Below, piece after piece: positions 4,932-28,425 of a stretch of DNA of 64,000 bases. The notes under the pieces are model-generated. The model ran no database searches and was not told the DNA's origin. It saw only the letters and a program-made list of their open reading frames with translations. Every line of letters begins with the position of its first letter. Position 1 is the first letter of the stretch. Made by a program: the position numbers and the translations under genes. The DNA lies in NCBI GenBank assembly GCA_965225855.1, contig CBDDCK010000005.1, positions 512,001 to 576,000 of the forward strand, given 5' to 3'. The DNA comes from Spirochaetia bacterium. GTDB taxonomy: Bacteria > Spirochaetota > Spirochaetia > SP-2023.

Positions 4932-6671
4932 ATGCCCAATCGTTTACAGCTTTGTGTGTTCCACTACCACTTAAAGCCCGGTGGGGTTACCGATGTTATT
5001 ATGGGCTGGATTCGCGTCTTGGCGCGTTATTCGGCAGAAATTTTCCCCCAATATCGAGAGCTTGTGGTGCGCGTATGTTGTGGCAGCGCAGAAAATGTAG
5101 CACAATTGCAGTCAGAAGATTTTGGTTTGCTAACTGTTGATTTTGCGATAGACAGCCGGCTCGGTTATGACAATCAAGATATACTATCTTTTGGCAAAGA
5201 TTATCCCAAACATATAGAGCAAGTGGCGACGCATTTATTAGAGCATTACAACGCTAAAGGTTGGGATAATTTATGGTGGCTGCACAATTATCATTTGGGG
5301 AAAAACGTCGATTATACTCAAGCGTTGCTTCAAATTGTTCAGCAGCTAAAGCCGGCCAATTTAAGCTTTTTATTGCATATTCACGATTTTCCCGAATGTG
5401 GGCGACTTGCGCTGTATCAAAAATTGCTTCAAAGTCAGTGCAGTTTGTATAGTCAATGTTCTGCCGAAGTTGCTCTGCTGTATCCAATTGCGCCTAATGT
5501 TTGTTATAGCACAATCAACAAGAGGGATTTACAAATTCTGCGAGATGCTGGTTTACCAGAGCAGAAATTATTTTTTTTGCCAAATCCTGTGATATTTGAT
5601 GATTTAACAAAATTTCCTGTCGATAGCGCTTCTTTGCGCATGCAATTTAACCAAAATTTTTGTTTGCCAGATGCGCCATTGGCATTGTATCCAGTGCGCT
5701 GTATTCGGCGCAAAAATATTTTAGAACTGGCACTGCTGAATGTATTGACCAAAAAGCCGTGGAATTTGGTTTGTACTTTGCCCGGGGTATCGGAGAGTGA
5801 ACAGCTTTATTCAAAACAGGTTGAAAACTTATATCAAAATGGGGTGATTCAAGGTGCTTGCCATGTTGGCCTGCAATTAGAGCAAAAAGGCTGGAGCTTT
5901 GCCATGTTGTGCCATGCTGCTGATATTATTGTTTCTAGCTCTGTGATGGAGGGTTTTGGCTTTACTTATTTTAACTCGATGTACTGGGGCAAAACTTTAT
6001 TTGCTCGCTATCTTGATGTTCTACAAGGTTTTGAGCATTGTTTTGAACCTGCGTTGTCCCTATTTTATCGCCAACTAAAAATTCCACTGTACAAGCTTAA
6101 TGGTAGGGTAGACCCTATATTAGCAGAATTATATTTTGAGCTACAACAAAAATATAGCAATTACATGCTTGGCTTGCCAGCTTTTGTGGGTAGGGAATTG
6201 CAACGTGAATTTAGCAAATTGCTTAAGCCGTCTGGTGAGCAGCTGCCCGAATATTTGGATTTTGCTTTATTCAATTTAGCCCAGCAAAAAAAACTTTTAT
6301 GGCGCTTGCACCATCATAAAAATGATACTGAAGATTGTTTTTTGCTAGCTTGCCGCCAAGCAAACTCAAATCTACTACAAGGTTTTGAATCTTTTCTATT
6401 TTATTCTGAAAATTTGCTTAAAAATCCTTCTGAAAATAAAGTGCAGCAAAATCGCAAAGATCTTGTTCGCAAAGATCTTGCCACCGAATTTGCACCACAA
6501 CGCCTTGCAAAAATTTTCAAGCAAGCGAGTATGGCTTGTTTGTCTGATCGTTTTGTGCTTGAGCCCAAATGTGCTGTTGATTTAGCTGCGATTAGCTATA
6601 ATGTTTTGCGTTCCTTTAGCAAATGGCAATATCATTATGCTATTTTATTGGACGATTGCTTGGGAAAATAA
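4932..6671 (+). CDS. GT-B fold (GT4-like) glycosyltransferase
   Basis: FHYHLKPGGVTDVI N-terminus, HIHDFPE, YPVRCIRRKNILE, SSVMEGFG (ExFG). ATG 4932 preferred over TTG 4902. Confidence 0.75.
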   Translation: MPNRLQLCVFHYHLKPGGVTDVIMGWIRVLARYSAEIFPQYRELVVRVCCGSAENVAQLQSEDFGLLTVDFAIDSRLGYDNQDILSFGKDYPKHIEQVATHLLEHYNAKGWDNLWWLHNYHLGKNVDYTQALLQIVQQLKPANLSFLLHIHDFPECGRLALYQKLLQSQCSLYSQCSAEVALLYPIAPNVCYSTINKRDLQILRDAGLPEQKLFFLPNPVIFDDLTKFPVDSASLRMQFNQNFCLPDAPLALYPVRCIRRKNILELALLNVLTKKPWNLVCTLPGVSESEQLYSKQVENLYQNGVIQGACHVGLQLEQKGWSFAMLCHAADIIVSSSVMEGFGFTYFNSMYWGKTLFARYLDVLQGFEHCFEPALSLFYRQLKIPLYKLNGRVDPILAELYFELQQKYSNYMLGLPAFVGRELQREFSKLLKPSGEQLPEYLDFALFNLAQQKKLLWRLHHHKNDTEDCFLLACRQANSNLLQGFESFLFYSENLLKNPSENKVQQNRKDLVRKDLATEFAPQRLAKIFKQASMACLSDRFVLEPKCAVDLAAISYNVLRSFSKWQYHYAILLDDCLGK

Positions 6672-6832
6672 ATATTTCCATGTGAGTAAAAAACTGTGAT
6701 AGATAGAAAAATTCTCAAAATAATGCATGAATATTTTGTAAATAGCGAAGAGGCCAAGCAACTGTTAAATGATAATAGAGGACCTTTAGATAAAAATGGA
6801 AAGCAATGCTACTCAATGATTAATCAAATACC

Positions 6833-8680
6833 TTGATGATATTCTCAACCGTAGAGAGCTTACAAAAGCAAAACAAAGTCCAAAACGAAAAATTAAAGGT
6901 GCTGAAACAATTATTTCCTGAAGTCATCAATTCCGATGGGCAATTAGACATCAACGCCCTTCAAGACTTCATAAGCCTTAACCAAACCACCGCCAACAAC
7001 AAAGGCTATGAACTTACCTTTGCCGGCAAGGGCTTGGCCAAAGCTAGAGCCAGCAGCGAAACGCCTTATGAACTCAAAACCGAAACAGAGCAAAGCAAAA
7101 ATTGGCACAGCACCGAAAATGTCATGATTCGGGGCGACAATTTAGAAGTATTGAAAATCTTGAAGGCAAATTATTTTGCAAAAGTTAAAATGATTTACAT
7201 AGACCCACCTTATAACACCAAAAGTGAAAACTTCATTTATAACGACAACTTCAAAAAAAACGAAAAAGATTTAATCAAAGACTTTGGTTTGGACGAAAAC
7301 ACCACAGACTTTTTAAGTAATGTTTATGGTACTCGTAGCCACAGTGGTTGGTTGGCGTTTATGTACCCTAGATTGAAATTAGCGCGTGATTTACTCAAAG
7401 ACGATGGCGTGATTTTCATCAGCATAGACGACAACGAACAAGCGAATCTAAAAATTCTTTGCGATGAGATTTTTGGCGAAGATAATTTTGTTGCCCAATT
7501 TGTTTGGAAGACAACAAAAAGCGCACAAGGTATGAAAACCAAAAACATGATTGTGAACAATCAAGAAATAATTTTTACCTATGCAAAGGACAGCAATATT
7601 TTTGAATTTATCGGTATGGAAAGAAATGATGTTGGGTTTTCCAATCCGGATAATGATCGAAGGGGGGCATGGAAAAGGCAGTATTTGCAAAGATTAGGGC
7701 AGAATCTATCAAAAAAGAGAATTGTCGATCCTATCACCAACATATCATATGAGTTTGAGACTCCTTATACTCAAGAAAAATTAGAACGTTGGATTGAAGA
7801 AGAAAGAATTATTTTTCCCAAAAATAAAAATGGCTACCCAGCTAGAAAAGAATTTTTAAGTGAATATAAAAATAATAAACAGTTGGTAACCAGTTTAGAT
7901 TTATACCCTACAAAATCATATACTGAAAAAGTTTATAAGTTTTTTGACAACTATAAAATATTTAATAACCCAAAACCGGACGATTTAATTAAATTCCTTA
8001 TCAAGAATAGCTTTAATACAAATAATGATATTATCCTAGATTTTTTTGCGGGTTCGGGCACTACCGGCGATGCGGTAATGCAATTAAATAATGAAGATGG
8101 CGGCAATAGAAAATTTATCTTAGTACAATGGGACGAAGCCATAAAAGAAAATACCGAAGCGTATCAATTTTGTATTGAAAATAACTTTGAGCCGGTAATT
8201 TCCAGTATTACCATAGAGAGACTAAATCGTGCGGGGGCTAAACTCAAACAAGAGCAAAAAGCCAAAGAAGGCATATTTGAAAGTGAAAAATTGGATATAG
8301 GCTATAAAGTCTTTTCGCTCAAGCCAAAACCGAAAATTATAGAAGACGATAATCATTTATTTACTTTAGAAAACCAAAGAGAACATACTACCGATACTGT
8401 ATATAATATGCTTTGCGCCACCAATAAACCTTTGCACACGCCTGTACAAGAACGTATTGCCGATAGTTTGTATTTGGTGGAACATATAGCAAAGGGCACA
8501 ATGCAAAAAAGTTTTTATTTGCTCAATATACCCAATGAGGAAATAGCCAAACAGATAATTGCTGAATTGGACAAAAATCCCGATAGCCAAATTTATATAG
8601 ATGGCTATAGTAGTATCAAACTGCAAAATTGGCTAAATTTGGGTATCGAGAGTAAAGAGAGTGTAAGGGTGGTTTATTAG
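6833..8680 (+). CDS. mod: Type III restriction-modification methyltransferase Mod (mod1; no adjacent res)
   Basis: [29 protein letters not shown], variable [14 protein letters not shown] (beta-class m6A order). Confidence 0.95.
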
Positions 8681-8716
8681 AAATAATTTCATTATAGCAA
8701 TTTTATTGGGGAAACA

Positions 8717-9136
8717 ATGATGGATAACAACAGAATAAAACATTTGGAGTTTTTGCAAAATATCATTACTAGAATGAATACCAATTCATTCCAAATAAAA
8801 ACTTTTACCGTTACTATGGTATCTGCGCTGTTAGCGGTTTTTGCCTCTACTAAAAATGAATTATTTATTTTGATTGGAGTTTTTGCAGTGTTGTTGTTTT
8901 GGTTTTTGGATAGTTATTATTTGCAGCAAGAAAGAAAATTTAGAGGCATCTATAACAATATTTCTGGCCTAAAAAAAGATGTTGCAATTAAAGATTTTGA
9001 AATGCCTATACATAAGTTTGTTGGTGGGCAGTTCAATTATTGGCAAGTATTTTGTTCTAAGACAATATGCTTATTTTATGGCTTTATTATAAGTTCCTTG
9101 ATAATAATTTTTATTGTTTTTAATTTTTGTTATTAA
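8717..9136 (+). CDS. Hypothetical 3-TM membrane protein (KHLEFLQNIITRMNTNSF type), possible defence effector
   Basis: 139 aa, three hydrophobic segments, FWFLDSYYLQQERKFR motif; lies in the defence island. Confidence 0.7.
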   Translation: MMDNNRIKHLEFLQNIITRMNTNSFQIKTFTVTMVSALLAVFASTKNELFILIGVFAVLLFWFLDSYYLQQERKFRGIYNNISGLKKDVAIKDFEMPIHKFVGGQFNYWQVFCSKTICLFYGFIISSLIIIFIVFNFCY

Positions 9137-9200
9137 GGTTTTGTTGATTATTAGGGTTGGGGATAAAATTTTTATCTTAATGTAAAGAAAAGTAGAGTTT

Positions 9201-9283
9201 ATGATAAACAAAAAAGAGTTGAGTCAAAATGCTATAAAAACCGTAGACAGTTAAAAAATGGAATATTGAGTTTTAAAGATTTC
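9201..9283 (+). pseudogene. Eroded 5' fragment of a mod gene
   Basis: MINKKELSQNAIKTVDS* resembles mod3 MINQSDLPKHNIPSLDS and mod1 STVES. Upstream aaagtagagtttatg resembles mod3 gagagtggagctatg. gaatattgag...aaagat matches the mod NIEALKD codons. Confidence 0.5.
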
Positions 9284-9332
9284 GCTTATGGATTAAAACA
9301 AAAGCAATTCATAATTCATCAAGGGAGAATAA

Positions 9333-9752
9333 ATGGTGAATGAAGATATAAGATGGCAACAGCGGTTTTTGAATTTTCAAAAAGCATTTCATCAACTCCA
9401 TGAAGCTATGGAGATTTTAGAAAAACGCCCTTTAACTAATTTAGAAAGGCAAGGTTTCATTCAAGCCTTTGAATATACCCACGAGTTAGCTTGGAAAACC
9501 ATGAAAGACTTTTTAGAATACAAGGGCAATACACAAACCATTTATGGTTCAAAAGACGCCACAAGAGAAGCGTTTAACGTAAATCTTATCACGCATGGAG
9601 AAGATTGGATGCGTATGATAAACAGCAGGAATTTAACCTCACACACTTATAATGAGGCTAAAGTACAAGAAATTATAAAGCTTATATCAAACAATTACTT
9701 TGTTAGATTTGTAGAATTTAAGGAAAAATTTCAAGAGCTTCAAAACCAGTAA
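9333..9752 (+). CDS. HI0074-family nucleotidyltransferase substrate-binding / HEPN protein (toxin-like)
   Basis: RWQQRF, GFIQAFEYTHELAWKTMKD, RNLTSHTY (RX4H HEPN motif). Confidence 0.9.
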   Translation: MVNEDIRWQQRFLNFQKAFHQLHEAMEILEKRPLTNLERQGFIQAFEYTHELAWKTMKDFLEYKGNTQTIYGSKDATREAFNVNLITHGEDWMRMINSRNLTSHTYNEAKVQEIIKLISNNYFVRFVEFKEKFQELQNQ

Positions 9753-9753
9753 T

Positions 9754-10053
9754 ATGTTCGGATTATCGCAAATCACGATAGATTCTATCAATGCAATTTT
9801 TGTAAATTATCAAAGTATTTTAAAGGTTATCGTGTATGGTTCAAGGGCAAAAGGCAATTACAAAGAAGGCTCTGATATAGATTTGGCTTTATTTGGCAAT
9901 GGCTTGGATTTTAAGGTTATCAGTGAAATAGATTGCAAAATTGATGATTTGATGTTGCCCTACAAAATAGACCTTTGCATTTACAATCATTTGGAAAACA
10001 GCGACTTAAAAGATCATATCAATAAAGTAGGTAGGCTTTTCTTTGAGAAATAA
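9754..10053 (+). CDS. Minimal nucleotidyltransferase (MNT, HI0073-like antitoxin)
   Basis: YGSRAKGNYKEGSDIDL (GSX10DXD); adjacent to the HEPN gene. Confidence 0.92.
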   Translation: MFGLSQITIDSINAIFVNYQSILKVIVYGSRAKGNYKEGSDIDLALFGNGLDFKVISEIDCKIDDLMLPYKIDLCIYNHLENSDLKDHINKVGRLFFEK

Positions 10054-10054
10054 C

Positions 10055-10215
10055 ATGCTAACTGAACAAGATTTAAGCCAACACAACATCAAAAGCCTAG
10101 ACCCTTCGCAAACGCACAAGGAAAGCCAAAACGCAACACTACAAGCCCTCAAACAATTATTGCCGGAAGTCATCAATGCCGATGGGCCGATGGCCAATTG
10201 AATATTGAGGTCAAA
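10055..10215 (+). pseudogene. 5' remnant of a mod3-like gene
   Basis: MLTEQDLSQHNIKSLDPSQTHKESQNATLQALKQLLPEVINADG; DNA nearly identical to ~26445-26575; frameshifted by an 8-bp tandem duplication GCCGATGG (10178-10193). Confidence 0.9.
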
Positions 10216-10234
10216 TTGAAGGTAGAATTACTAT

Positions 10235-11197
10235 ATGCCAAACAAATCACATTTTAATAAAGGACATATTGCACTCAATAATCAAAGAAAAAATGGCGTT
10301 AGCCATAGTTCTAAAATAGATTTACCGGCGCATAATGTCAAAAAAACAACTCATACGGTTTTCATTCAAGATGCTGTCAAGGCGTTAAAAAATATTCCTG
10401 ACAATACGATTCAATTAATCTTGATCGATCCACCTTATAATTTAGATTTAGATTATTGGGATACCTTTGAGAATTATTTGGAGTGGGCTAAATTGTGGCT
10501 GGACCCAATATACAGAGTTTTAGCACCTTCTGGAAATTGCGTTATCTTTGGAGGTTTTCAGTATCAAGACCTTAAAAAGGGAGACCTTTTAGAAATACTG
10601 TATTACACAAGGCATTCGACTAATTTGCGTTTTGTAAATCTTATAATATGGTATTACAGAAATGGAATGAGTGCTCATAGGTTTTTTGCAAACCGGCATG
10701 AAGAAGCAGTTTGGTTGTCAAAAACAAAAAAGTATTATTTTGATCTTGATTCGGTAAGAATTCTATACGATGAAGAAACAAAAAAAATCTATAAAAAGGA
10801 TAAAAGACTAAATCCTGATAGTGTAGATAAAGGCAAAAACCCTACAAATGTTTGGGAAATAAGTAGGCTTAACGGAAATTCAAAAGAGAGAGTCGGCCAC
10901 CCCACACAAAAACCAATAGAAATTATACGGAGATTTGTTCGCGGTCTTTCATACCCTGGTTCTCTAGTTCTTGATTTCTTTGCTGGATCAGGAACAACTG
11001 GCAGAGTTTGTATTGAAGAAGGTAGGAATTCAATATTGGTAGATGACGATTCTACTTTGAATGACTACCTTCAGACACATATAGAACAAATAGATGATAC
11101 GTTTATGAAACCTTATGAAATAGTTCAGGGTAACGATATATCTAAAACTATTAGTAAAGTTTGGAATATCGATCGTAATAAAGTAGTATCCGTTTAG
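10235..11197 (+). CDS. Orphan beta-class N6-adenine DNA methyltransferase, M.RsrI-like (predicted GAATTC)
   Basis: DPPY before FAGSGT. Segments NGMSAHRFFANRHEE, KTKKYYFDLD, KDKRLNP and SRLNGNSKERVGHPTQKP closely match M.RsrI as recalled. Confidence 0.88.
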   Translation: MPNKSHFNKGHIALNNQRKNGVSHSSKIDLPAHNVKKTTHTVFIQDAVKALKNIPDNTIQLILIDPPYNLDLDYWDTFENYLEWAKLWLDPIYRVLAPSGNCVIFGGFQYQDLKKGDLLEILYYTRHSTNLRFVNLIIWYYRNGMSAHRFFANRHEEAVWLSKTKKYYFDLDSVRILYDEETKKIYKKDKRLNPDSVDKGKNPTNVWEISRLNGNSKERVGHPTQKPIEIIRRFVRGLSYPGSLVLDFFAGSGTTGRVCIEEGRNSILVDDDSTLNDYLQTHIEQIDDTFMKPYEIVQGNDISKTISKVWNIDRNKVVSV

Positions 11198-11253
11198 AAA
11201 GTTGGTTTAATCTGGGTGCGCATAATAAGAAAAATATCACGGTGGTTTATTGA
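11182..11253 (+). pseudogene. 3' remnant of a mod3-like gene
   Basis: Translates as SSIRLESWFNLGAHNKKNITVVY*, versus the mod3 end SSICLEDWFNLGAHRTDKKNIAVVY*. Confidence 0.88.
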
Positions 11254-11286
11254 TGGAAACGGGAGTTTAAGTAAGGAATAAACAAT

Positions 11287-12618
11287 ATGGCACAAGACAG
11301 TATTCTGCAATTAAAAATTGAAAACTTTAGGGCTATCAAAAAGGCTGATATTGAGCTTAATGGCATTACTGTAGCAGTAGGTGAAAATGGGGCCGGTAAA
11401 AGTACTATTTCTAAATTACTGTATTATTCTATTAAGATTGTCAATTACTATGATGAAGTTATTTATGAAAAACTAAAAGATAGGATATATGAGATAATAA
11501 AAGTGTTATCATCTATCAACCGCTATTATGACAATGATGATTTGAAAAATGATTTAGATTCTGTAAGAAACAACGATGCTGTTAATAAAAAAGAATTGCT
11601 TATTGATATTATTGATCGTCTCCAAGAATATGATGATAAACAATTGGGTAGAAAAATAGACAAAATAAGGTATAGATTGCTATTGAATTTTATTATTAGA
11701 AATGATGTTGAGGACTTTGATAATATTAAGGATTCTAAGGATGTTTGGAATATCTTAAAGAAAAAGGTTGTCCAATTATATGACAATGCCCAAAAAGATA
11801 TTCAGGCCAGAAGTAAAAAAATCTTTGAAAACAAATTGGCTAGTGTGTTTAATCAGAAACTGAAAGACTTTGTTGTTTGTGAGCATGGTGAAGCTATTAT
11901 TAGCAGAGACGATCAGCTAGGACAATTTTTCAGTATATCTAATGCTATTTATATAGATAGCCCTATGGCGGTGGAACATCCGGCCTATAAGGGGCGTTGG
12001 GGATATAGGGATATAGATACCGATGCCTTTAGCCATTGGAAAGATTTAAACTTTTATCTTAAAGAGACCAATCAAAAGCATCTTGAAGAAATTAGAGATA
12101 CAGATATATATGGTGAATTGCAAGATATTTTTAGTTCTGACGAAATTTTAGATGGAAAAATATCCATTAATGAAGGACGAGAGGAATTAATATACCGTAG
12201 AAACGATGGCCAAAATTTTCCTATTTTGGATTGTGCCACAGGGGTAAAGTCGATTGCTATTTTACAAATGCTCTATATTAATGGCTGGTTGAGTAATAAA
12301 ACGCTATTAATTTTAGATGAACCCGAAACTCATTTGCACCCACAATGGATTGTGGAATATGCCCGATTGGTAGTTTGGCTGAACAAAAAAGTAGGGGTTA
12401 CGTTTTTTATAGCGTCTCATAATCCCGATATGGTAAGTGCGATACAAGATATTAGCGACAAACAAGGTATTAATGACAACCTTAAATTTTATCTTGCTAA
12501 AAAACAAGAAGACTATACTTATAAATTTAACGATCAAGGCACAGATGAAGAGAATATTTTTGCCTCATTTAACATAGCCATAAACAAGATAAATAAATAT
12601 GGCGGTGATGATGAGTAA
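11287..12618 (+). CDS. AAA_15/AAA_21-like (OLD/AbiEii-type ABC) ATPase
   Basis: LKIENFRAI start, GENGAGKST Walker A, ATGVKS signature, LILDEPETHLHP, ASHNP. Confidence 0.9.
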   Translation: MAQDSILQLKIENFRAIKKADIELNGITVAVGENGAGKSTISKLLYYSIKIVNYYDEVIYEKLKDRIYEIIKVLSSINRYYDNDDLKNDLDSVRNNDAVNKKELLIDIIDRLQEYDDKQLGRKIDKIRYRLLLNFIIRNDVEDFDNIKDSKDVWNILKKKVVQLYDNAQKDIQARSKKIFENKLASVFNQKLKDFVVCEHGEAIISRDDQLGQFFSISNAIYIDSPMAVEHPAYKGRWGYRDIDTDAFSHWKDLNFYLKETNQKHLEEIRDTDIYGELQDIFSSDEILDGKISINEGREELIYRRNDGQNFPILDCATGVKSIAILQMLYINGWLSNKTLLILDEPETHLHPQWIVEYARLVVWLNKKVGVTFFIASHNPDMVSAIQDISDKQGINDNLKFYLAKKQEDYTYKFNDQGTDEENIFASFNIAINKINKYGGDDE

Positions 12619-13102
12619 ATATTGCCAAAATGTAACCTTAAATCATAAAGTAGCTCAAGAATATATAGATTGTGTTCAATCAATTGATTGTATTTGCAGA
12701 GAAGAAAGTTTTCATGAAGGAAAAAAGAAATGTTGTGATGTAGAGAATATTACATTTGGAGATGCGCAAGCCATCAATTTAGATTGTGTAATGAGAAAAG
12801 AAAAACCTATTCTTGCTTCTGTGGATATAATAATAGGATTAAATAATAAACGATATGTTGGGATTGAATTAAAATTGAATGTTAAAAAAGTTCCTATAAA
12901 TGATTCACAACAACTTAAAAGGAAAAGGTGTAATACGCTGAAGAAACTTAAATGTCAAGAAAACAATATGGACTTTGTTTTAATTTATTGCAGAACTTCA
13001 AAAGCGGAAAATTATTTACATAGAATACAAAGAGAGAGAAATCCGCCAAAACACGGATATGAAATAATGTTTCTTGAAGATTTTAAAACAAAATTTTGGT
13101 AG
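12599..13102 (+). CDS. Cys-rich hypothetical protein, possible PD-(D/E)xK nuclease partner of the ATPase (start may be 12608 or 12611)
   Basis: Overlaps the ATPase stop; SVDIIIG...VGIELK motif. Confidence 0.65.
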   Translation: MAVMMSKYCQNVTLNHKVAQEYIDCVQSIDCICREESFHEGKKKCCDVENITFGDAQAINLDCVMRKEKPILASVDIIIGLNNKRYVGIELKLNVKKVPINDSQQLKRKRCNTLKKLKCQENNMDFVLIYCRTSKAENYLHRIQRERNPPKHGYEIMFLEDFKTKFW

Positions 13103-13118
13103 AGAGTATTCAAAAACA

Positions 13119-13688
13119 TTATTCAAACAAGATTAGAGCTTTATAATAAACCAGAACATCAGCTAGGCTCGCTTGAGAGCCCAATAAATAAACGGAATTT
13201 TTTTGTAATAACCTTTCATATTTTGCTAAAGTTAGCAAGCATTGTTGTTGGGCCGCACGCCAGAAATGTTCACAACTAGAGCTAGGGCTTGAATGGCAAT
13301 TCCATTCATTTTTATAGCGTTCTGGGTATTTATAGCAGTCTAAATAATATTTGAATGGTCCATCATTTTCATTGCCGATCGCTTCAGTCTGCAATCTTTG
13401 TTCTTCATCAAGGCCTACCCACCAATTGTCTCTATCAAATTGGCCGTTATTTCGTTCTAAAGCCCAATGCATAATGTCCCAACTTTCCTCACAAAGATAC
13501 GCAGTTTCAGCATGGTAAAGTACAGGAACTGTAACCCGTTCTTTATGCGATAATTTTACTAAATCATAAGGCTTATTCTTCAAAGACACTTCAATCAAAG
13601 AAAAGGGTAATTGGCTATATTCAAGCACCATACGGCAGCGTATTGCATAAGGGCAACGCCTAAATGAATAAAAAATATATGGTTTCAT
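13119..13688 (-). CDS. Glutathione S-transferase family protein, probably C-terminally truncated
   Basis: YSFRRCPYAIRCRM, TVPVL, ESWDIMHWAL, NDGPFKYYLDCYKYP; ends 11 aa after SLADV, where homologues normally continue. Confidence 0.85.
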   Translation of the reverse strand: MKPYIFYSFRRCPYAIRCRMVLEYSQLPFSLIEVSLKNKPYDLVKLSHKERVTVPVLYHAETAYLCEESWDIMHWALERNNGQFDRDNWWVGLDEEQRLQTEAIGNENDGPFKYYLDCYKYPERYKNEWNCHSSPSSSCEHFWRAAQQQCLLTLAKYERLLQKNSVYLLGSQASLADVLVYYKALILFE

Positions 13689-13780
13689 TATCGCTCCAGC
13701 AATGGCTATAAAGTAGGTTATTTTGTTTGACAGCTCTAAAGTAATTTTAGTGGTAAGCTAAAATCGAAACAAGATAGTTT

Positions 13781-13864
13781 CTATGCATAGAAACATTTTG
13801 TTTTTATAGATAGAATCGTTTTGTTTCTATTTATGGAATATCTTTATTTTTATATATAGAATTG
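13781..13864. repeat. 23-bp tandem array, family A (consensus YTATAGATAGAATCGTTTTGTTT), 3.6 units
   Basis: Units start at 13781, 13804, 13827 and 13850. Confidence 0.8.
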
Positions 13865-13933
13865 TTATTTGACAATTGTATTAAACTGTGTTTTAATAGG
13901 CAGCAATATTATATATATGCGGGGTTAAATGAT

Positions 13934-14641
13934 ATGGCAATAAAATATGAATTACTGAAAAATCATATTGGCAGTGAACCAAAAGGCTACCATGCCTTAG
14001 TATGTAACCAAAAGGTATATGACCGTAAAGAGTTTGTTGAGATGATGCTCAATCGCGGTACGTCATTGACTATAGCCGATATTGAAGCGGTGCTAGCTTG
14101 CCAAGAAGAAGTCATCAAACAAATAGTCAAAAATGGCGAAGGGCTCAATACGGGTGTCTTTATCATGCATATTGATATTAAAGGCAAATTTGACGATGCC
14201 AATAGTCCTTTTAACAAGTCCAGTAATAGCTTGGCCATCAATATAACGGCAAGTAAAGTACTGAAAGATCTTTTGGGTGATATAGATGTGGAACGAGTCT
14301 ACAGTTCTGGTAAAGAAGCCAAAATCACCGTTGTTGAAGATATAGACAGCCAGACTCAAGATAGTAAATTGACCCCTGGCGGCCCGATAAAAGTTCTAGG
14401 CAATCGCATTAAAATCAAAGCTGCTGTGCCTTCGGACAACAAAGAGGGTTTGTACGTAGTAAATATAGCTGATGATAGCGAAACAAAGTTTAATACACCG
14501 ATTCGCAATAAGCCTTCTGAATTGATTTATATCATTCCGACTTTGCCAGCAGGCCAATATAAGTTGGAGGTACGCACCTATAAAACAGGTGCTACTGCCC
14601 TAAAAATCATTGCCTTCGATACGGTATTTACAGTTAGTTAG
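13934..14641 (+). CDS. HU-like DNA-binding domain + Ig-like (DUF4469-type) protein
   Basis: N-terminal RGTSLTIADIEAVL...GEGLNTG HU-like fold; C-terminal LTPGGPIKVLGNRIKI...RNKPSELIYIIP..LPAGQYKLEVRT. ATG 13934 preferred. Confidence 0.8.
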   Translation: MAIKYELLKNHIGSEPKGYHALVCNQKVYDRKEFVEMMLNRGTSLTIADIEAVLACQEEVIKQIVKNGEGLNTGVFIMHIDIKGKFDDANSPFNKSSNSLAINITASKVLKDLLGDIDVERVYSSGKEAKITVVEDIDSQTQDSKLTPGGPIKVLGNRIKIKAAVPSDNKEGLYVVNIADDSETKFNTPIRNKPSELIYIIPTLPAGQYKLEVRTYKTGATALKIIAFDTVFTVS

Positions 14642-14715: not shown

Positions 14716-16164
14716 ATGGAATCTAAAACAATTGAAAATCTTGAAAAACTCAAAATATTGAAAGATGATATTCTTTTAAGTGAAATAAATGAATTAGATG
14801 ACTCTTTAACAAGATATTTTTCTTCCGCTTTTAATATTGATGATGCCTTGACTAGAAAGATTGTCAGTTTCCAAGCAAATAAATCTCGCACATATTATAA
14901 ATTATATAAATATAAAGAGGCGTTTTCCGTAGATTTAGTAGAATATCTTTTTCATAAATATAAAGTAGAATATGGTAAAATTCTTGATCCTTTTGCTGGG
15001 TCTGGTACATCTTTGTTTGCTGTTTCATCATTAGGTTATCAAGCAGAAGGTATTGAACTCTTACATGTAGGACAAAAAATTATAAAAGCAAATATACTGA
15101 TTAGAAATGATAATAAGAAGAAAATTACTGCTGGATTGAAAACTTGGCTATATAAAAAACCTTGGAATAATAAAGGGGAAATTAAAGATTTTGAAATACT
15201 TCGTATAACTAATGGGGCATATCCCTATGAAACGCATCAAAAAATTAAGCGGTATCTTAATGATTTAGAATATGAAATACAAGAAATCAAAGAAATACTA
15301 TTATTTGCACTTCTGTCTATTCTTGAATCAATTAGTTACACAAGAAAAGATGGCCAATACCTTCGCTGGGACTATAGAGCTGGACGTAGAAATGGTAAAC
15401 ATATTTTTGATAAGGGAAAAATCTATTCATTTGATGAAAGTATCATAGAAAAGTTAGCTGAAATAATAAAAGATATAAATTATGAAGATAATAATGATGA
15501 TTTATTGTTTCTAAAACAAAAGAATATAGAAAAAGGGGATATTAGCTTATTAAAAGGTTCGTGTTTAGATATTTTGCCTAAACTAAAAGGATATAGTTAT
15601 TCTGGAATAGTAACATCACCACCTTATTGTAATCGTTATGACTATACGCGTACTTACGCATTAGAACATGCAATACTTGGTATAAATCAAAATAAATTAT
15701 CTAATTTAAGACAAGCCATGTTAAGTTGTACAGTAGAAAATAAAATAAAAGAGCTTACTAATTTAAGCTATGATTGGAAAATAGCGATAGAGATTTGTGA
15801 AAATTTACCATTACTGCAAAAAATATTAGATTATTTAGATTATAAAAAAGAGATAAAAAAGCTTAATAACAATGGTATTGCTCGTATGGTTAGAGGTTAT
15901 TTTTACGAAATGAGTTGTGTTACTCAAGAATGTTATAGAGTATTAGATAAAGATGGTATAATGTTTATGGTTAATGATAATGTTCGATATGCTGGGGCAG
16001 TAATACCTGTAGATATAATTCTTTCAAAAATAGCTGAAACAATCGGATTTAAGATAGAGAATATTCTTGTTCTGCCACAAAGTAAAGGCAATAGTTCTCA
16101 ACAAATGGGTACGTATGGGCGATCAGTTTTAAGAAAGTGTGTGTATATATGGAAGAAGATATAA
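14716..16164 (+). CDS. N4-cytosine DNA methyltransferase, M.AvaI/M.BsoBI-like (predicted CYCGRG)
   Basis: YKYKEAFS, LDPFAGSGTS, VTSPPYCNRYDYTRTYALE, KGNSSQQMG; directly upstream of an AvaI-type endonuclease. Confidence 0.88.
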   Translation: MESKTIENLEKLKILKDDILLSEINELDDSLTRYFSSAFNIDDALTRKIVSFQANKSRTYYKLYKYKEAFSVDLVEYLFHKYKVEYGKILDPFAGSGTSLFAVSSLGYQAEGIELLHVGQKIIKANILIRNDNKKKITAGLKTWLYKKPWNNKGEIKDFEILRITNGAYPYETHQKIKRYLNDLEYEIQEIKEILLFALLSILESISYTRKDGQYLRWDYRAGRRNGKHIFDKGKIYSFDESIIEKLAEIIKDINYEDNNDDLLFLKQKNIEKGDISLLKGSCLDILPKLKGYSYSGIVTSPPYCNRYDYTRTYALEHAILGINQNKLSNLRQAMLSCTVENKIKELTNLSYDWKIAIEICENLPLLQKILDYLDYKKEIKKLNNNGIARMVRGYFYEMSCVTQECYRVLDKDGIMFMVNDNVRYAGAVIPVDIILSKIAETIGFKIENILVLPQSKGNSSQQMGTYGRSVLRKCVYIWKKI

Positions 16165-16167
16165 CAA

Positions 16168-17128
16168 ATGCCATTTAAAAATCATCTAAAGTCATATCAA
16201 GACTTAATTACCCCCTTATGAAGAAACAAGAGCAGGATTTATTTCATTAGCATTAGAAAAGAACAGAAAAGCAACGCCCTTTATTGAAGAAGCTAAAGCA
16301 CTCAAAGTATTTGCATCAAAAGCAAAAAGGCCAAAAGATTTATTGGAAATATACGAAATTAAAGACTCCCTACTTACAGCATCGGGAGTCTCTGAAAAAG
16401 CAAAAAACTACTTAGAAAAAGATGATAAAGAAGAGGCTATATACCAACTAATAAAGAATTTTTTAGAACCTGCTGGAAAGGCGTTTTTAGATGAATTAAT
16501 CTATCGTTTTTTGCTAACAAGAGGAGATTCTTTGGGCGGTAGTATGAGAAATCTAGCGGGTGTACTGGGAGAATGGCGGTTTACAAGAATGTTTATATCT
16601 ACCTGTTCCATTAGCGGAATAAATTTAGAATATCTTGATTCTAAAACTAAGAAATGGATAAATCATAATTCTGATCCTGAGATAGAGAAACAGATAAAAG
16701 GCTTATATTGGGTTTATAAAAACAAAGAGCGTACCATAATTTATAATTTAACTGTGCCAATATTAAAAAAGAATATTGACCTTTGCTTGTTTGATAGTTC
16801 TCCTAGTCAGATAGTATTTGGTAAAAATGCCAATTCGGTACACCATAATTTTACAAAATATCTTGCCTTAGGTGAATTAAAAGGTGGTATTGACCCAGCA
16901 GGAGCAGATGAACACTGGAAGACCGCCAATTCAGCATTAGCTAGAATTAGGGCTGCATTTTCTGAACAATGTTGTCCTGTTAAAACATTTTTTATTGGTG
17001 CGGCAATTGAAAATGCGATGGCAAAAGAAATATATGAACAATTGAATAATGGCATTCTTTCAAATGGGGCAAACTTAACAAATGAAAATCAAGTTGTTTC
17101 ATTGTGTAATTGGTTAATTAAATTATAA
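16168..17128 (+). pseudogene. AvaI/BsoBI-family Type II restriction endonuclease, +1 frameshift at codon 15-16
   Basis: MPFKNHLKSYQDLIT then CCCCC (16211-16215) leads to TGA. Removing one base restores PYEETRAGFISLALEKNRKATP, continuing to GELKGGIDPAGADEHWKTAN as in BsoBI. Confidence 0.92.
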
Positions 17129-17230
17129 AAAATATAGAATATCAATGCTGAAAATAAAAAATTCTATATGCCAACAAGAAATCTATTAAAATTGACTTAG
17201 TGGTACGGTAATAATGGTTAGGGGATTTTT

Positions 17231-17361
17231 CTATGTATAGAACTGTTCTCGTTTCTATATATACAATCGCTTTATTTCTATAGATAGAATCGTTTTGTTT
17301 TTATCTATAAGAATTTTTTGTCTTTATAGATAGAATCGCTTTGTTTGTATAGATAGAAATG
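17231..17361. repeat. 23-bp tandem array, family A, ~5.6 units
   Basis: For example CTATAGATAGAATCGTTTTGTTT and TTATAGATAGAATCGCTTTGTTT. Confidence 0.85.
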
Positions 17362-17502
17362 AAAGTGTTGAAAATAGAGTTGTCGTATAATGAAATACGA
17401 AAAGAAAAACACTGCAAATAGAAGTATTAACGGAAACAACGAAAAGATTTCTATGGAATTATTCCTTTTTGCCTCTTCATTTTAACTTTATTGGTTGGGT
17501 AT

Positions 17503-18417: not shown

Positions 18418-18501
18418 GCATGTATAGAACCGTTTTGTTTCTATCTATAGAAATTTTTTGGTTTTATGGATAGAATAGGTTTGTTTTTATATATGGAAAT
18501 G
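18418..18501. repeat. 23-bp tandem array, family A, 3.6 units
   Basis: Units start at 18418, 18441, 18464 and 18487. Confidence 0.8.
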
Positions 18502-18538
18502 ATAGACGAATTTATAGGAAACAAGTTAGGTTTAAAAT

Positions 18539-18676
18539 ATGAACATCAAAGAAGAACAAACAACGGACAATATCAAAATACCCTATAATATGAAGATTCT
18601 CAAAAAGCATTTTTCACACTGCTTTGATAAAGCGGGGGCTTTTGATTTTAGTAAGCTGATAGTTATTATCTTTTGA
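18539..18676 (+). pseudogene. 5' remnant of a mod2-like gene
   Basis: MNIKEEQTTDNIKIPYNMKILKKHFSHCFDKAGAFDFSKL versus mod2 TDNIKAPNNIELLKQHFSHCFDKAGAFDFAKF; catttttcacactgctttgataaagcgggggcttttga is identical to 20980-21017. Confidence 0.9.
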
Positions 18677-20516: not shown

Positions 20517-20650
20517 TCTCTTTTAGTTTATGTAATTTCATATACAAAATTTCGCAATCATAGATTTTTACTAAAAGTTAGTTTATTGTAATTTTATTCT
20601 CTAATCAATGCTTAAAAATTATTTTATTGTTTTAGCCATATAAAAATACA

Positions 20651-20850
20651 GCCAAAGTTATCTCCGTGAATTGCTCGGGCAATATACGGGAAGAGCTTTG
20701 GCTAAATACGGGAAGAGCTTCGGCTAAATACGGGAAGAGCCCCGACTAAATACGGGAAGAGCTTCGGCAATACACTGTTTTACTTAGAGGCGGCTACTTA
20801 GTAGGCCAACACTTTATTATTGTTGTTTAGGTTTTTATTTAAATGCCGAG
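20651..20850. repeat. Dispersed element, family B: leader + 4 x 22-bp (AAATACGGGAAGAGCTTCGGCT) + trailer, upstream of mod2
   Basis: Leader GCCAAAGTTATCTCCGTGAATTGCTCGGGC and trailer AATACACTGTTTTACT are shared with the copies at 22922 and 26151. Confidence 0.9.
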
Positions 20851-20889: not shown

Positions 20890-22887
20890 ATGATAGAACT
20901 AGGACAAGAACCAGAAATTATAAAACAACGCCTAACCGATAACATTAAAGCACCGAATAATATCGAGCTTTTAAAACAACATTTTTCACACTGCTTTGAT
21001 AAAGCGGGGGCTTTTGACTTTGCTAAATTTAAGCAAGAGCTTTCGCAAAATGAAGAGACTAATTTTTCTAAAGAAAGTTACGGCTTAGAGTGGCTGGGCA
21101 AAAGCTATGCCAGACTTTTGGCTAGCGATGAAGCCACCACCTTACTTAGAGAAAATAAAGAGTGGAACGCCCAAGCCCAAAACCAAAACAGTCAAAATCT
21201 ACTCCTCAAAGGCGATAATCTGGAGGTGCTAAAGCATTTAAGTAATGCCTACTACCAAAAAATCAAGATGATATACATTGACCCACCTTATAATACAGGT
21301 AGTGATGGCTTTGTCTATCAAGATAATAGAAAGTTTAATACCCAAGAGTTAGCCGAGTTGGCAGGCATAGACGAAGAACAAGCTCAACGCATTTTGGACT
21401 TTACCCAAAGCAAAAGCAACTCCCACAGTGCTTGGCTTACCTTTATGTACACCAGATTATACATTGCCAAACAATTACTCAAAGACGATGGCGTACTATT
21501 TATTAGCATTGACGACAACGAACAAGCCAATCTAAAACTACTTTGTGATGAGATTTTTGGCGAGGATAATTTTGTAGGAAATATTATTTGGCATAAAAAA
21601 ACACAACCTTCTTTTTTAAGTAGTGAAATATCTAATGTTAAAGAGTATATTTTACTTTATAAGAAGTCTGAAAAATTGATTAAAACTTTTGGAGGGACTA
21701 CAAACCCTGATAAAAAGATAGAGATGATAAATGCTTCAAATAAAGAAGATGTTAGGACTTTTAACAGAAATAATATTATTTTTGACAATGGTGCTTTTAA
21801 CGGTATTTTACAAAAAGGTAAGTATGGGAATGCTAATTTACAAATAGAACTACTACAAAATGTTGAGATAGCTAACGGAAAGCCGTTATGTGATTTTGCA
21901 TTAATAGGTAGGTTTAAGTGGTCTCAAGTAAAAATCAATGAATCTTTTAGTAAAGGGGATACATTTTATTTAACTACAAAAACATTAAGACCAATTATGG
22001 AACAAAAAGAAAAAGTGGTAAAAACAAAACCAATTCTTGATTTATTAAGTAAGAAAACTAATTTTGAAATAGGGACTAATACAGATGGGACAAATGAAAT
22101 AGCAAATATTTTTCAAAAAAAAGAATTATTTACTAATCCAAAGCCTACTAAATTAATCAAATACCTTATAAAAAGTATTGAAAACAACCCCAACGACCTA
22201 ATCCTAGACTTCTTTGCTGGCAGTGGTACTACTGGCGAGGCGGTAATGCAATTAAACAGTGAAGACGGCGGTAATAGAAAGTTTATCTTGGTACAGTGGG
22301 ACGAAGCCATAAAAGAAAACAGCGAAGCCTATCGGTTTTGTACGCAGAACAATTTAAAGCCCGTTATTTCTAGTATTACACAAGAACGCCTTATAAGAGC
22401 TGGGCAAAAGCTAACAAAAGGGAATATAACGGACTTATCCACTTTGGATTTGGGTTTTAAGATTTTTGAAACCATAGCCAACGATGAGGGCGTGTGGGCA
22501 AATTATGACTTTGCAGCTAAAGAATCAAATGACAATATTGTCCTTTTGGACGAGGAAAAATTGCAAGAACAAGACTTGCAAAACCTACTCACCACTTGGA
22601 AAACTTATGACAATATCCCGCTAACCCAAGATTTAAGCGCGGTGGATTTAGCAGGGTATAAGGGCTATTACTTTGACAGTAAATTATATTTAGTCTATCC
22701 AGGTTTTGCGACAGAACACCTTGTAGCCCTGCTCAATAAAATAGATGGCGATACAAAATTTAATCCGGCCAATATCTACCTCTTTGGTTTTAACTTTGAA
22801 AGCAAAATGTTGCGAGAATTGGCAGAGAATATAGCCAATTACAAAAACAAGAAAGCAATTGAGATGGATTTAATCACCAGATATTGA
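20890..22887 (+). CDS. mod: Type III RM methyltransferase Mod (mod2)
   Basis: [46 protein letters not shown]; followed by res. Confidence 0.96.
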   Translation: MIELGQEPEIIKQRLTDNIKAPNNIELLKQHFSHCFDKAGAFDFAKFKQELSQNEETNFSKESYGLEWLGKSYARLLASDEATTLLRENKEWNAQAQNQNSQNLLLKGDNLEVLKHLSNAYYQKIKMIYIDPPYNTGSDGFVYQDNRKFNTQELAELAGIDEEQAQRILDFTQSKSNSHSAWLTFMYTRLYIAKQLLKDDGVLFISIDDNEQANLKLLCDEIFGEDNFVGNIIWHKKTQPSFLSSEISNVKEYILLYKKSEKLIKTFGGTTNPDKKIEMINASNKEDVRTFNRNNIIFDNGAFNGILQKGKYGNANLQIELLQNVEIANGKPLCDFALIGRFKWSQVKINESFSKGDTFYLTTKTLRPIMEQKEKVVKTKPILDLLSKKTNFEIGTNTDGTNEIANIFQKKELFTNPKPTKLIKYLIKSIENNPNDLILDFFAGSGTTGEAVMQLNSEDGGNRKFILVQWDEAIKENSEAYRFCTQNNLKPVISSITQERLIRAGQKLTKGNITDLSTLDLGFKIFETIANDEGVWANYDFAAKESNDNIVLLDEEKLQEQDLQNLLTTWKTYDNIPLTQDLSAVDLAGYKGYYFDSKLYLVYPGFATEHLVALLNKIDGDTKFNPANIYLFGFNFESKMLRELAENIANYKNKKAIEMDLITRY

Positions 22888-22921
22888 TATGCCAAAATAG
22901 TTTTAGCGATGCAATAACATA

Positions 22922-23090
22922 GCCAAAGTTATCTGCGTGAATTGCTCGGGCAATATACGGGAAGAGCTTCGGCTAAATACGGGAAGAGCTTTGGCAATAC
23001 ACTGTTTTACTGAAACGCTGCGCTTGTGGACGGTACTGGTAAAAATACTCATTGATTATGGTTGTTTGGTTTTTGGTTTCAATGCTGAAG
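22922..23090. repeat. Family B element with 2 x 22-bp units, upstream of res1
   Basis: Same leader, unit and trailer as the copy at 20651. Confidence 0.9.
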
Positions 23091-26031: not shown

Positions 26032-26150
26032 TAAGTATATACTGCTTCACTGAAAGCACAAAACCAAACGCCCCCACCCAAACAGAGCCCCCAAGAGCGC
26101 CTTACAGCAAATAATTTTGGCAAATAGCTTTAGCAATTTAACAAAACAAG

Positions 26151-26410
26151 CAAAGTTATCTCCGTGAATTGCTAGGGCAATATACGGTCAGAGCCCCGAC
26201 TAAATACGGTCAGAGCTCGCCCTAAATACGGGAAGAGCTTTGCCCATATACTGTTTTACTTAGAGGCTACCCTTAAAGGCTAGCATTCAAAGTAGTTATG
26301 TGCCAGTGGTGGATGCGATGGCTAGCTGGGAATTTTACATAAATATGATTGGCCAAAACCATACTAATTGATTATGATTGCTTTGATTTTTTATGTGAAT
26401 ACTAAGGAGA
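26151..26410. repeat. Family B element with 3 x 22-bp units, upstream of mod3
   Basis: CAAAGTTATCTCCGTGAATTGCTAGGGC leader, units AAATACGG(TC/GA)AGAGC, trailer ATACTGTTTTACTTAGAGGC, and the distal ATACT.ATTGATTATG block. Confidence 0.85.
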
Positions 26411-26418
26411 GTGGAGCT

Positions 26419-28341
26419 ATGATCAACCAAAGCGATTTACCAAAACACAACATACCCAGCCTAGACTCTGCGCAAACGCACAACGCAAGCCAAAACGCAA
26501 CACTACAAGCCCTCAAACAATTATTGCCGCAAGTCATCAATGCCGATGGCCAATTGAATATTGAGGCACTCAAAGATGTTATAGATATTGCCCAAACCAC
26601 CGCCAACAACAAAGGCTATGAGCTTACTTTTGCCGGCAAGGGCTTGGCCAAAGCCAAAGCCAGTAGCGAAACTGCTTATGAACTCAAAGCCCAAACAGAG
26701 CAAAGCAAAGATTTTGACACTAGCCAAAATATCGTGATTCGGGGCGACAATTTGGAAGTATTAAAAATCTTAAAAGCCAATTACTTTGAGAAAGTCAAAA
26801 TGATTTATATTGACCCGCCCTACAATACCAAGAGCGACAATTTTATCTATAGCGACAATTTCGAGAAAAAGCAACAAGAGCTTATCGAAAGTTTTGGTTT
26901 GGACGAAAGCACAAAGGATTTTCTAAGCAATGTTTACGGCACGCAAAGCCACAGCGGTTGGTTGGCCTTTATCTATCCGCGCTTGAAACTTGCAAGGGAT
27001 TTACTTAGAGATGATGGCGTGATATTTATTAGTATAGACGATAACGAACAAGCCAATCTGAAAATACTTTGTGATGAGATTTTTGGGCAAGATAATTTTG
27101 GAACAAGTTTTATATGGCAGAAAACAGATGCGAAGGTAGATCAAAATACAAATGCAAAAGTTATACACCGAGAGAAAAAAATACATGAATATATTTTATG
27201 TATTTTTAAAAATAAAGGCACAACGAGATTTAATAAAATAAAAAAACTGCCGATTTGGGGCAAACAACAAACTAACCCCGACAAAGATAAGAGAGGTAAT
27301 TGGCAATCAGGGATAATATCTTATGAAGAAGGACACAAAAACGAGGATAAAAGCAGTGAGTATTACTATACTTTAATATCCCCGTCTGGTATAAAATGGA
27401 AAAGGCATTGGTTTTTAAACCAAAAAGATATGAATGAGTTGGTTTTAGATAATAGGGTATATTTTGGGAAATCACCAGACTATAACAACGTACCAAGAAA
27501 AAAGACCTTTGAAAATGAGGAACAAAATTACCATTTTGAAACAATAGTAAGGGAAATGGGAACAAGTTCCAGCAGTAAAAGTGAAATAGAAGAAATATTT
27601 GATAAAAGGAAAGGAATATTTGATACACCAAAGCCAATTAAATTGGTAAAAGAAATTGTACGATGTTCTACCAACCCAAACGACCTAATCTTAGACTTTT
27701 TCGCAGGGAGTGGCACTACTGGCGATGCGGTGATGCAATTGAATAATGAAGACGGCGGCACTAGAAAATTTATCTTAGTGCAGTGGGACGAAGCCATCAA
27801 AGAAAACAGCGAAGCCTATCGGTTTTGTACGGAGAATAATTTAGAGCCCGTTATCTCCAGCATCACCATAGAACGCTTACATCGTGCGGGGGCTAAACTC
27901 AAACAAGAGCAAAAAACCAAAGAAGGTATATTTGAAAGTGAAAATTTGGATATAGGTTATAAAGTGTTTTCGCTTACGCCCAAGCCCAAACTTACGGAAG
28001 GGGCTAATAATGTATTTGTGTTAGAAAATCAAAGAAACAATAGCACTGACACTTTATATAATATGCTTTGCGCCACCAATAAACCTTTGCATACGCCCGT
28101 ACAAGAACGTATTAAAGGTAGTTTGTATTTGGTGGAACATGTGGAAAAGGGCATAACGCAAAAAAGTTTTTATGTGCTCCATATGCCCAATGAAGAAATA
28201 GCCAAACAGATAATTGCTGAATTGGACAACAACCCCGATAGCCCAATTTATATAGATGGCTATAGTAGTATCTGTTTAGAAGATTGGTTTAATCTGGGCG
28301 CGCATCGTACCGACAAGAAAAATATAGCGGTGGTGTATTAG
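26419..28341 (+). CDS. mod: Type III RM methyltransferase Mod (mod3; close paralogue of mod1 with a different TRD)
   Basis: DPPY and FAGSGTT motifs; AAGGAGAG/GGAG RBS before ATG 26419. Confidence 0.96.
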   Translation: MINQSDLPKHNIPSLDSAQTHNASQNATLQALKQLLPQVINADGQLNIEALKDVIDIAQTTANNKGYELTFAGKGLAKAKASSETAYELKAQTEQSKDFDTSQNIVIRGDNLEVLKILKANYFEKVKMIYIDPPYNTKSDNFIYSDNFEKKQQELIESFGLDESTKDFLSNVYGTQSHSGWLAFIYPRLKLARDLLRDDGVIFISIDDNEQANLKILCDEIFGQDNFGTSFIWQKTDAKVDQNTNAKVIHREKKIHEYILCIFKNKGTTRFNKIKKLPIWGKQQTNPDKDKRGNWQSGIISYEEGHKNEDKSSEYYYTLISPSGIKWKRHWFLNQKDMNELVLDNRVYFGKSPDYNNVPRKKTFENEEQNYHFETIVREMGTSSSSKSEIEEIFDKRKGIFDTPKPIKLVKEIVRCSTNPNDLILDFFAGSGTTGDAVMQLNNEDGGTRKFILVQWDEAIKENSEAYRFCTENNLEPVISSITIERLHRAGAKLKQEQKTKEGIFESENLDIGYKVFSLTPKPKLTEGANNVFVLENQRNNSTDTLYNMLCATNKPLHTPVQERIKGSLYLVEHVEKGITQKSFYVLHMPNEEIAKQIIAELDNNPDSPIYIDGYSSICLEDWFNLGAHRTDKKNIAVVY

Positions 28342-28425
28342 TGGGGAAGCCAATTAAATCTAGGCGTGGATAATGCCAATAAGTAAAATATTATTGTGGT
28401 TTGTTAGAAATTTAAAAATTAGAAA

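Follow-up and report, generated by a model that had tools for sequence, protein, structure and literature searches.

An intact gene for an M.RsrI-like DNA methyltransferase stands between the two ends of a Type III mod gene whose interior is missing, an arrangement that was confirmed in every point. It lies in the window, i.e., the whole stretch of 64,000 nt analyzed here (C5:512001-576000 of genome G000; assembly 2.7 Mb, 94% complete), and bears on how integrase-free defense islands change their content. The explanation we favor, at a probability of about 0.58, is that a methylase-nuclease pair entered a mod gene once, that a deletion followed, and that the surviving mod ends serve as crossover arms in a mod-cargo-mod array. 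The capture event looks ordinary and one-off. The mod arrays with persisting short ends are more interesting, and it is likely that these ends shuffle cargo in this genome.

Anatomy of the hollow mod copy

The preliminary description placed a mod3-like 5' end with an 8-bp duplication ahead of the M.RsrI-like gene and proposed that the breakpoints be fixed by alignment to mod1 and mod3. This alignment was run, fixed both remnants as listed in Table 1, and bore out the 5' end: with one copy of the duplication left aside, 127 of 148 positions are identical to the start of mod3 and mod4 (local score 185; maximum of 200 shuffles, 31), compared with 85 of 124 for mod1. The five bases TCAAA, up to 10215, are assignable to either side of the 5' junction, and the end point of 10215 given earlier is therefore fair. 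The 72-bp 3' end had been called mod3-like. It is a mod remnant (local score 111; best of 200 shuffles, 33) but more mod4-like than mod3-like, because 67 of its 72 positions match mod4, compared with 61 for mod3 and 47 for mod1. It was also correct that this remnant supplies the stop of the methylase and that about 1.7 kb of mod interior has been replaced by an unrelated gene. The final four codons and the TAG at 11195-11197 are mod sequence read in a different frame, and 1,697 bp of mod3-equivalent interior are missing, with 971 bp present instead. The junctions correspond to mod nt 148 and 1845, i.e., to about codon 49 and to 25 codons before the mod end.

A derivation of the two remnants from different mod copies had been named as grounds for abandoning the earlier interpretation. 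Both are compatible with a single mod4-like allele (mismatches: 1/80 distally in the 5' remnant, 5/72 plus a 6-bp gap in the 3' remnant), although the first 150 nt of mod3 and mod4 do not differ, so that one mod copy cannot be told from two. A short-read contig of run X1 matches 10136-13700, including the duplication and the two junctions, without any difference; because X1 probably is the source sample, the contig is not independent. Other readings of the junctions were tried and rejected: a methylase N-terminus derived from mod (an NKG look-alike), because this N-terminus is invariant in homologues; an in-frame mod-methylase fusion, because stops occur between the two ATGs; and the 8-bp repeat as a target-site duplication, because its two copies adjoin each other, 17 bp ahead of the junction.

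Table 1. Coordinates of the mod genes, mod remnants, and neighboring genes (window positions unless a contig is named)
Feature	Coordinates	Strand	Basis or remark
mod1, Type III methyltransferase, intact; opens the sub-array as its first repeat unit	6833-8680	+	PADLOC MTase_III, E 1e-145
Cargo that immediately follows the mod1 3' end, PDC-M50A-like membrane protein	8717-9136	+	PADLOC PDC-M50A, E 4e-44
Cargo, HEPN (9333-9752) and MNT (9754-10053)	9333-10053	+	Pfam PF08780, PF18765
mod 5' remnant	10055-10210	+	Mosaic; aligns to the starts of mod3 (ATG 26419) and mod4
Likely crossover arm, the same in mod3 and mod4	10123-10165 (43 bp)	+	No mismatch between 10122 and 10166
8-bp tandem duplication, GCCGATGG twice	10178-10185 and 10186-10193	+	Frameshift leading to a stop at 10198-10200
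Spacer, mod junction to methylase start	10211-10234	+	From sequence; AAGG, a ribosome-binding-like word of putative function
Intact methyltransferase of M.RsrI/EcoRI-specificity type, without nuclease	10235-11197	+	Full-length homology
mod 3' remnant, mod4-like, 6 bp missing	11182-11253	+	Source of the final four codons and the stop of the methylase
Cargo, AAA ATPase (11287-12618) and 167-aa ORF (orf167, 12599-13102), behind the mod 3' remnant	11287-13102	+	Pfam AAA_15, AAA_21; weak PADLOC HEC-02A
GST-like host gene	13119-13688	-	Similarity to homologue stops at 13148/13149
mod2-type 5' remnant next to a TOPRIM/AAA cassette of opposite orientation	18545-18654	+	tblastn residues 10-46, E 3e-10; score 96, shuffle 31
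mod2, intact	20890-22887		
mod3, intact	26419-28341	+	5' 600 nt common with mod4, TRD different
Decayed second mod 3' end, directly behind mod3 and ahead of three cargo ORFs and res3	28354-28410	+	
mod4, close fourth copy outside the window	C5:1808059-1809981 (start 1809981)	-	

The orphan methylase and its relatives

The ORF between the mod ends is homologous to M.RsrI (PDB 1eg2) over residues 1-299 (E 1e-107), and the catalytic DPPY and SAM-binding FxGxG (FAGSG) motifs are invariant in 24 homologues. With this full-length homology and these motifs it resembles the methylases of EcoRI-family Type II systems; relatives pair with PF02963 nucleases. It differs in being an orphan whose C-terminus and stop come from mod. 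A complete EcoRI/RsrI-type R-M system was not found here, as no cognate endonuclease gene was detected in the genome: tblastn with four relative nucleases gave no EcoRI-family nuclease below E 0.25 in the 94% complete assembly. M.RsrI is specific for GAATTC, and the orphan methylase, judged by its homology, would share this specificity. GAATTC is the fourth rarest of 64 palindromes in the genome (278 seen, 737 expected; O/E 0.38). This rarity fits a past nuclease and indirectly supports the presumed specificity, although palindrome avoidance is general here, with 20 of the 64 palindromes at an O/E below 0.75. In a 24.6-kb sample of the congener G002, the O/E is 0.3, with only 2 sites. Loss of the nuclease only is the safe route for losing a Type II system.

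Relatives of the methylase were examined at 21 of 80 loci, namely those with at least 52% identity. An EcoRI-family nuclease adjoins the methylase at 13 of the 21 (downstream on the same strand at 9, convergent at 1, upstream at 3). In the three closest relatives (83, 79, and 77% protein identity) it is always directly downstream, and at locus L018 its start overlaps the methylase stop. No nuclease was seen at 8 of the 21 loci, some of them clipped by contig ends, and the methylase could therefore have arrived alone. The C-termini of the homologues fall within about five codons of the 3' junction (the methylase of locus L020 ends AAAGTAGGATGA; the mod counterpart is AGTAGTAT), which places this junction where the nuclease would begin. 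Such a position, at the nuclease start of the closest relatives, fits a deletion and tells against mod ends as uptake sites. A 5-nt microhomology at the junction (AGTAG), read from the homologues and not from the donor, is plausible. The proposal that mod termini themselves take in foreign genes also found no support among the relatives: a Type III mod or res occurs at 0 of the 21 loci in the flanks available, and a donor would therefore bring no mod arms.

At L020:5966-6016, the methylase stop is overlapped by a stub that looks by eye like the start of an EcoRI-family nuclease and is not followed by a full gene; it may represent another nuclease loss among the methylase relatives. No close M.RsrI homologue was found in three congeners (G001, G002, and G003), and no relative was found on viral contigs. 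A metagenome scan gave 6 loci at 47-52% identity, and none of the 4 that were mapped has a mod array or an internal repeat.

Mod ends, cargo, and crossovers

The hollow copy belongs to a defense island (6833-32596) in which three Type III mods are intact and which further contains two res genes, a BsoBI-type pair, an HNH nuclease, HEPN-MNT, and two AAA cassettes. mod1 and mod3 share 77-85% nucleotide identity in their conserved parts. The stop of MNT lies one base ahead of the ATG of the 5' remnant. The decayed mod 3' end behind mod3 is 79% identical to mod4 over 57 nt (E 7e-8), with a weaker score of 48 against a shuffle best of 37. Cargo between the end of a mod and the next mod or res comprises PDC-M50A-HEPN-MNT, AAA-orf167, three small ORFs, and a cas12a-like gene. 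Most cargo thus lies between the 3' end of one mod and the start of the next, the reverse of the layout claimed when mod ends were described as landing pads. No integrase was found among the 49 window ORFs scanned with Pfam, and the two tyrosine integrases of the genome (PF00589; C5:383726 and C1:134691) are both outside the window. Of the suggestion that the island is loaded without an integrase, the absence of a tyrosine integrase in or near the island stands, and capture by mod ends is not supported. An integron or other site-specific cassette system is not indicated, since no tyrosine integrase is linked to the array.

Repeats and further genes were also recorded in the island. Tandem repeats of 22 bp precede mod2, res2, and mod3 (20626-20790, 22897-23025, and 26122-26274); the pattern forms 32 clusters genome-wide, many in front of mod genes, and could represent recombination or promoter elements. 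An AT-rich short repeat family lies at cassette borders (13777-13867, 17228-17365, and 18420-18505). A gene for an HU-like DNA-binding and DUF4469 protein (13862-14641) has at least five paralogues in the genome, some at other R-M clusters. The nuclease ORF of the BsoBI-type pair (14716-17128) as listed begins at profile position 57 of 313 and may be truncated; the O/E of CTCGAG in the genome is 0.47.

Profile and BLAST scans of the genome, in which the mod2 type was covered by tiles and tblastn only, gave two families with 11 intact mods in all, together with 6 remnants of 5' ends and 5 of 3' ends. None of the 11 remnants exceeds 160 nt, and no intermediate lengths were found; under uniform breakpoints the odds of such short remnants are about 4e-7 (5') and 6e-6 (3'). 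Three pairs of remnants form both-ended hollows. One contains a gene (M.RsrI), and the two of the second family, at C5:127443-127572 and 784970-785137, are empty, one being joined at a 14-bp direct repeat common to both ends. Hollowing needs no cargo, because empty hollows exist, and their emptiness is a further point against mod ends as uptake sites. The breakpoints vary between cases. A foreign cassette adjoins 4 of the 6 5' remnants, and three of these cassettes are derived from Type II R-M systems. The three unpaired 5' remnants concerned abut a partner stub and a Type II methylase, an intact Type II pair on the other strand, and TOPRIM/AAA on the other strand. Cassettes behind mod starts do turn up recurrently.

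Two of these loci and the second family can be described further. At C5:776943-778217, a 49-codon stub and then an intact Type II methylase gene come after a mod 5' remnant; the stub is 67% identical to the gene upstream of the homologous methylase at locus L124 and has a weak REase_II match (E 3e-5). This is a second methylase without its partner behind a mod start. At C5:2000036-2001980, a divergent mod-like start follows 22-bp repeats and faces a Type II R-M pair that is intact and lies on the opposite strand. The second family has seven Type III-like mods at C5:113205-131973 and 769209-785137, in the order mod, TPR-like repeat gene, 22-bp repeats, mod; its arrays contain no internal res, and a distant res-like gene is at C5:763920.

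A crossover near 10122 in the 5' remnant was shown by its mosaic structure. Compared with mod3, 20 of 68 positions mismatch in 10055-10122 and 1 of 80 in 10123-10210 (Fisher P 4e-7; 0/2000 permutations), and over those distal 80 bases mod1 and mod3 have 21 differences. The proximal part, 10055-10122, comes from another allele. From the mosaic alone it does not follow that the crossover came later than the hollowing. Four of seven short-read runs were compared over 5600-13700. In run X4, from a different study, one contig (depth about 7) departs from the reference at 13148, continues for 34 letters that include a mod start, and rejoins at 10080. The inserted mod start has 4/25 mismatches to mod3, compared with 11/25 to the 5' remnant. 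The contig crosses the hollow junction with one extra T and has no 8-bp gap among the matches listed, which we read as the duplication being kept; X4 also carries the methylase, with 5 differences in 400. X4 is a metagenome-like run, and at this depth the contig could be chimeric via the 43 bp that the 5' remnant has in common with intact mods. Similarity between the GST-like gene and its G002 homologue stops at 13148/13149, the very base of the X4 joint; the homologue aligns to GST-like residues 4-180 and extends about 65 residues more. A mod that once lay downstream was likely deleted here, leaving this gene end as its scar. Read most simply, orf167 was formerly followed by a mod start, and the hollow mod and AAA-orf167 stand in circularly permuted order in the two strains. 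Because the hollow junction is unique, at least one lineage would then have crossed over inside the dead 5' end. The mosaic and the single low-depth contig thus uphold the 5' remnant as a crossover site, and directed uptake, which the earlier reading of mod ends as recombination sites had included, is not upheld. With regard to other joints, 8608->11182 in X4 and X6 reflects only mod alleles with a matching 3' end, and for 6153->6884 in X5 no explanatory similarity was found between 6093-6153 and the mod start. HEPN-MNT lacks coverage in X4-X6 and depths vary among the X1 contigs; neither observation entered the argument.

Swapping of TRDs and ends among intact mods is active in the lineage and clearer than in the hollow copy. 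Identity between mod3 and mod4 is 99-100% in the first 600 nt, drops to about 50% in the TRD, and is 78-99% beyond it. P0122 is a mosaic of the TRD of mod4 with mod1-type ends. In family B, the 5' end of copy b778 groups with a130/b769 and its 3' end with a113/a117/a121/b781. The intact mods accordingly show TRD movement, to which the hollow copy had been likened. The hollow copy itself does not: there is no in-frame fusion, and its junctions are outside the TRD-flanking motifs and far outside the TRD borders.

An intact mod at the hollow position, or other cargo between the same mod ends, would have favored the earlier interpretation. Neither was found; for other cargo the search covered 4 runs, six congener stretches, and the 60 of 99 E. 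coli matches listed, a thin sampling. No syntenic locus was found in the three congeners, in which the two flank genes compared are present but far apart. Among 400 genomes of the phylum, no mod3 relative exceeds 71% nucleotide identity over at least 300 nt. The congener G001 does have mod-cargo-mod arrays, and at L100:4973-5200 a 228-bp duplicate of a mod 3' end, 97-98% identical, lies between a cargo gene and res. At locus L098, a mod is split by an IS-like gene. As a control, the 5' end of the EcoP15I-type mod was found in 89 of 5,426 E. coli genomes, 88 of them covering at least 80% of the 203-nt query. This mod is single-copy there, and no hollow form occurs among the 60 of 99 matches listed; a lone 41-nt mod start adjoins a transposase pseudogene.

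Origin of the hollow copy and its parallels

In the explanation we favor, a Type II pair would have joined non-homologously behind about codon 49 of a mod4-like gene. One deletion, from the last codons of the methylase to 72 bp before the mod end and probably at AGTAG, would then have removed the toxic nuclease and the mod interior and left a harmless orphan methylase. Because both mod ends were kept, RecA-type crossovers in them could change the neighbors of the hollow unit, which are HEPN-MNT upstream and AAA-orf167 downstream here and orf167 upstream in the X4 strain; the mosaic shows a crossover, and the timing comes from the one contig. Circular permutation would be expected from unequal crossing-over, or from excision of a circle and its re-integration. 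The mod ends would move genes already captured and would not capture new ones, and the route between cells may be transformation, as comEC was found in the genome. Counting against this explanation are the unseen intermediate (a mod with both methylase and nuclease), the 4 of 6 5' remnants abutting foreign cassettes, which is more than plain decay needs, and the short arms (156 and 72 bp).

Closer to the preliminary description is the idea that mod ends are recurrent acceptors whose interior is replaced in one step, e.g., by homology-facilitated illegitimate recombination during transformation. The presence of comEC, the low odds of six 5' and five 3' remnants all being so short, and the Type II R-M derivation of three of the four cassettes abutting 5' remnants are in agreement with it. 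However, deletion erosion also leaves short ends where the signals of neighbors must stay, cargo is present in only one of the three both-ended hollows, and the breakpoints are not at the same place in each case. Because two of the four cassettes are oriented toward the remnant, these two do not use its promoter. Considering also that no mod is near the 21 methylase relatives and that E. coli shows no hollow form among the 60 of 99 matches listed, we regard recurrent acceptance as improbable. A broader version, in which the mods are an integrase-free, integron-like platform with short ends as cassette-array sites, capture preferred behind mod starts, and the hollow mod as a travelling pseudo-allele (a giant TRD) able to replace any intact mod, appears doubtful.

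It is unlikely, too, that the hollow copy is an inert scar of an insertion and deletions, possibly in two neighboring mods, with the X4 joint a chimera and the mosaic older than the hollowing. Plain deletion does make such ends, as the empty hollows illustrate, and the identity of mod3 and mod4 at their 5' ends makes two source copies look like one. The lone mod start beside the transposase pseudogene in E. coli is in line with a scar. Run X4 has low depth and is in fragments, and upstream of 10188 it showed no intact mod 5' end. A chimera would, however, require the loss of two graph branches, and the GST-like gene is cut exactly at the X4 joint base. The distal 80 nt of the remnant are, moreover, nearly those of mod3 and mod4, with mod1 differing at 21 positions, which argues for recent origin or exchange. 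Insertion driven by restriction, in which a cassette enters through nuclease cutting and repair and about 100 bp of a mod end are duplicated in the process, so that the remnants would be target duplications, would account for the duplicated mod2 5' end around a cassette (18545 and 20890) and for the duplicated mod 3' ends behind mod3 and around a cargo gene in G001. We consider it very unlikely, since the ends around M.RsrI are different parts of mod and not copies of one target, and since single-crossover integration yields the same duplications without cutting. Such insertion with long target duplication is reportedly connected with Nobusato et al. 2000.

The known processes behind the hollow copy are the shuffling of tandem paralogues and the replacement of mod by a Type II system seen in H. 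pylori, and the use of the array would be a variant of these. In H. pylori, locus 4 can carry, in place of mod, a hypothetical gene or a Type II R-M system together with an IS (Furuta and Kobayashi 2012, PMC3467074). Conserved mod flanks there exchange the TRD, as do mod3/mod4 and P0122 here; our case differs in that both mod ends stay, no IS was seen, and the mods form arrays. In the S. aureus lpl cluster, crossovers in tandem paralogues lead to deletion, duplication, re-integration of circles, and apparent translocation, the moving unit being a 3' part, a spacer, and the next 5' part (Tsuru and Kobayashi 2008, PMC2568036). Common to both are tandem paralogues whose 5' and 3' parts group differently (family B and the remnant mosaic here). 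In contrast to lpl, whole defense genes form the spacers here and methylase genes the repeats, among which dead hollow copies seem to persist.

The enteric immigration control region, a possible parallel to this island, has a variable restriction content and no integrase at its anchors; those anchors are core genes, whereas the repeated arms here are the defense genes themselves (PMC12707154). Accessory genes embedded within R-M systems, as is the mod-res cargo here, including the PDC-M50A match, have been described for Hma, BREX, DISARM, and Type I systems; in the sections available these genes lie between intact genes, and "recombination" has 0 occurrences in the main text as available (Payne et al., 10.1101/2024.01.29.577857). 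R-M remnants have been linked to rearrangements (PMC4760077). No paper on mod remnants or on tandem mods with cargo was found in a literature search conducted mostly outside subscription journals and supplements. Should dead mod ends continue to serve as crossover arms, an array of Type III methylases would be both a defense and a scaffold, the order of cargo would be predictable from the mod ends, and remnants would mark cassette borders for new defense genes.

The slot between mod and res holds three small ORFs at mod3 and a cas12a-like gene at mod4. The latter (1,243 aa; C5:1804250-1807981, L001:9250-12981, minus strand; PADLOC Cas12a, E 8e-184) sits between the mod4 3' end and a res3 5' remnant of about 60 nt. 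It is about 730 kb from the main CRISPR array and the other cas12a, to which it has 29% identity.
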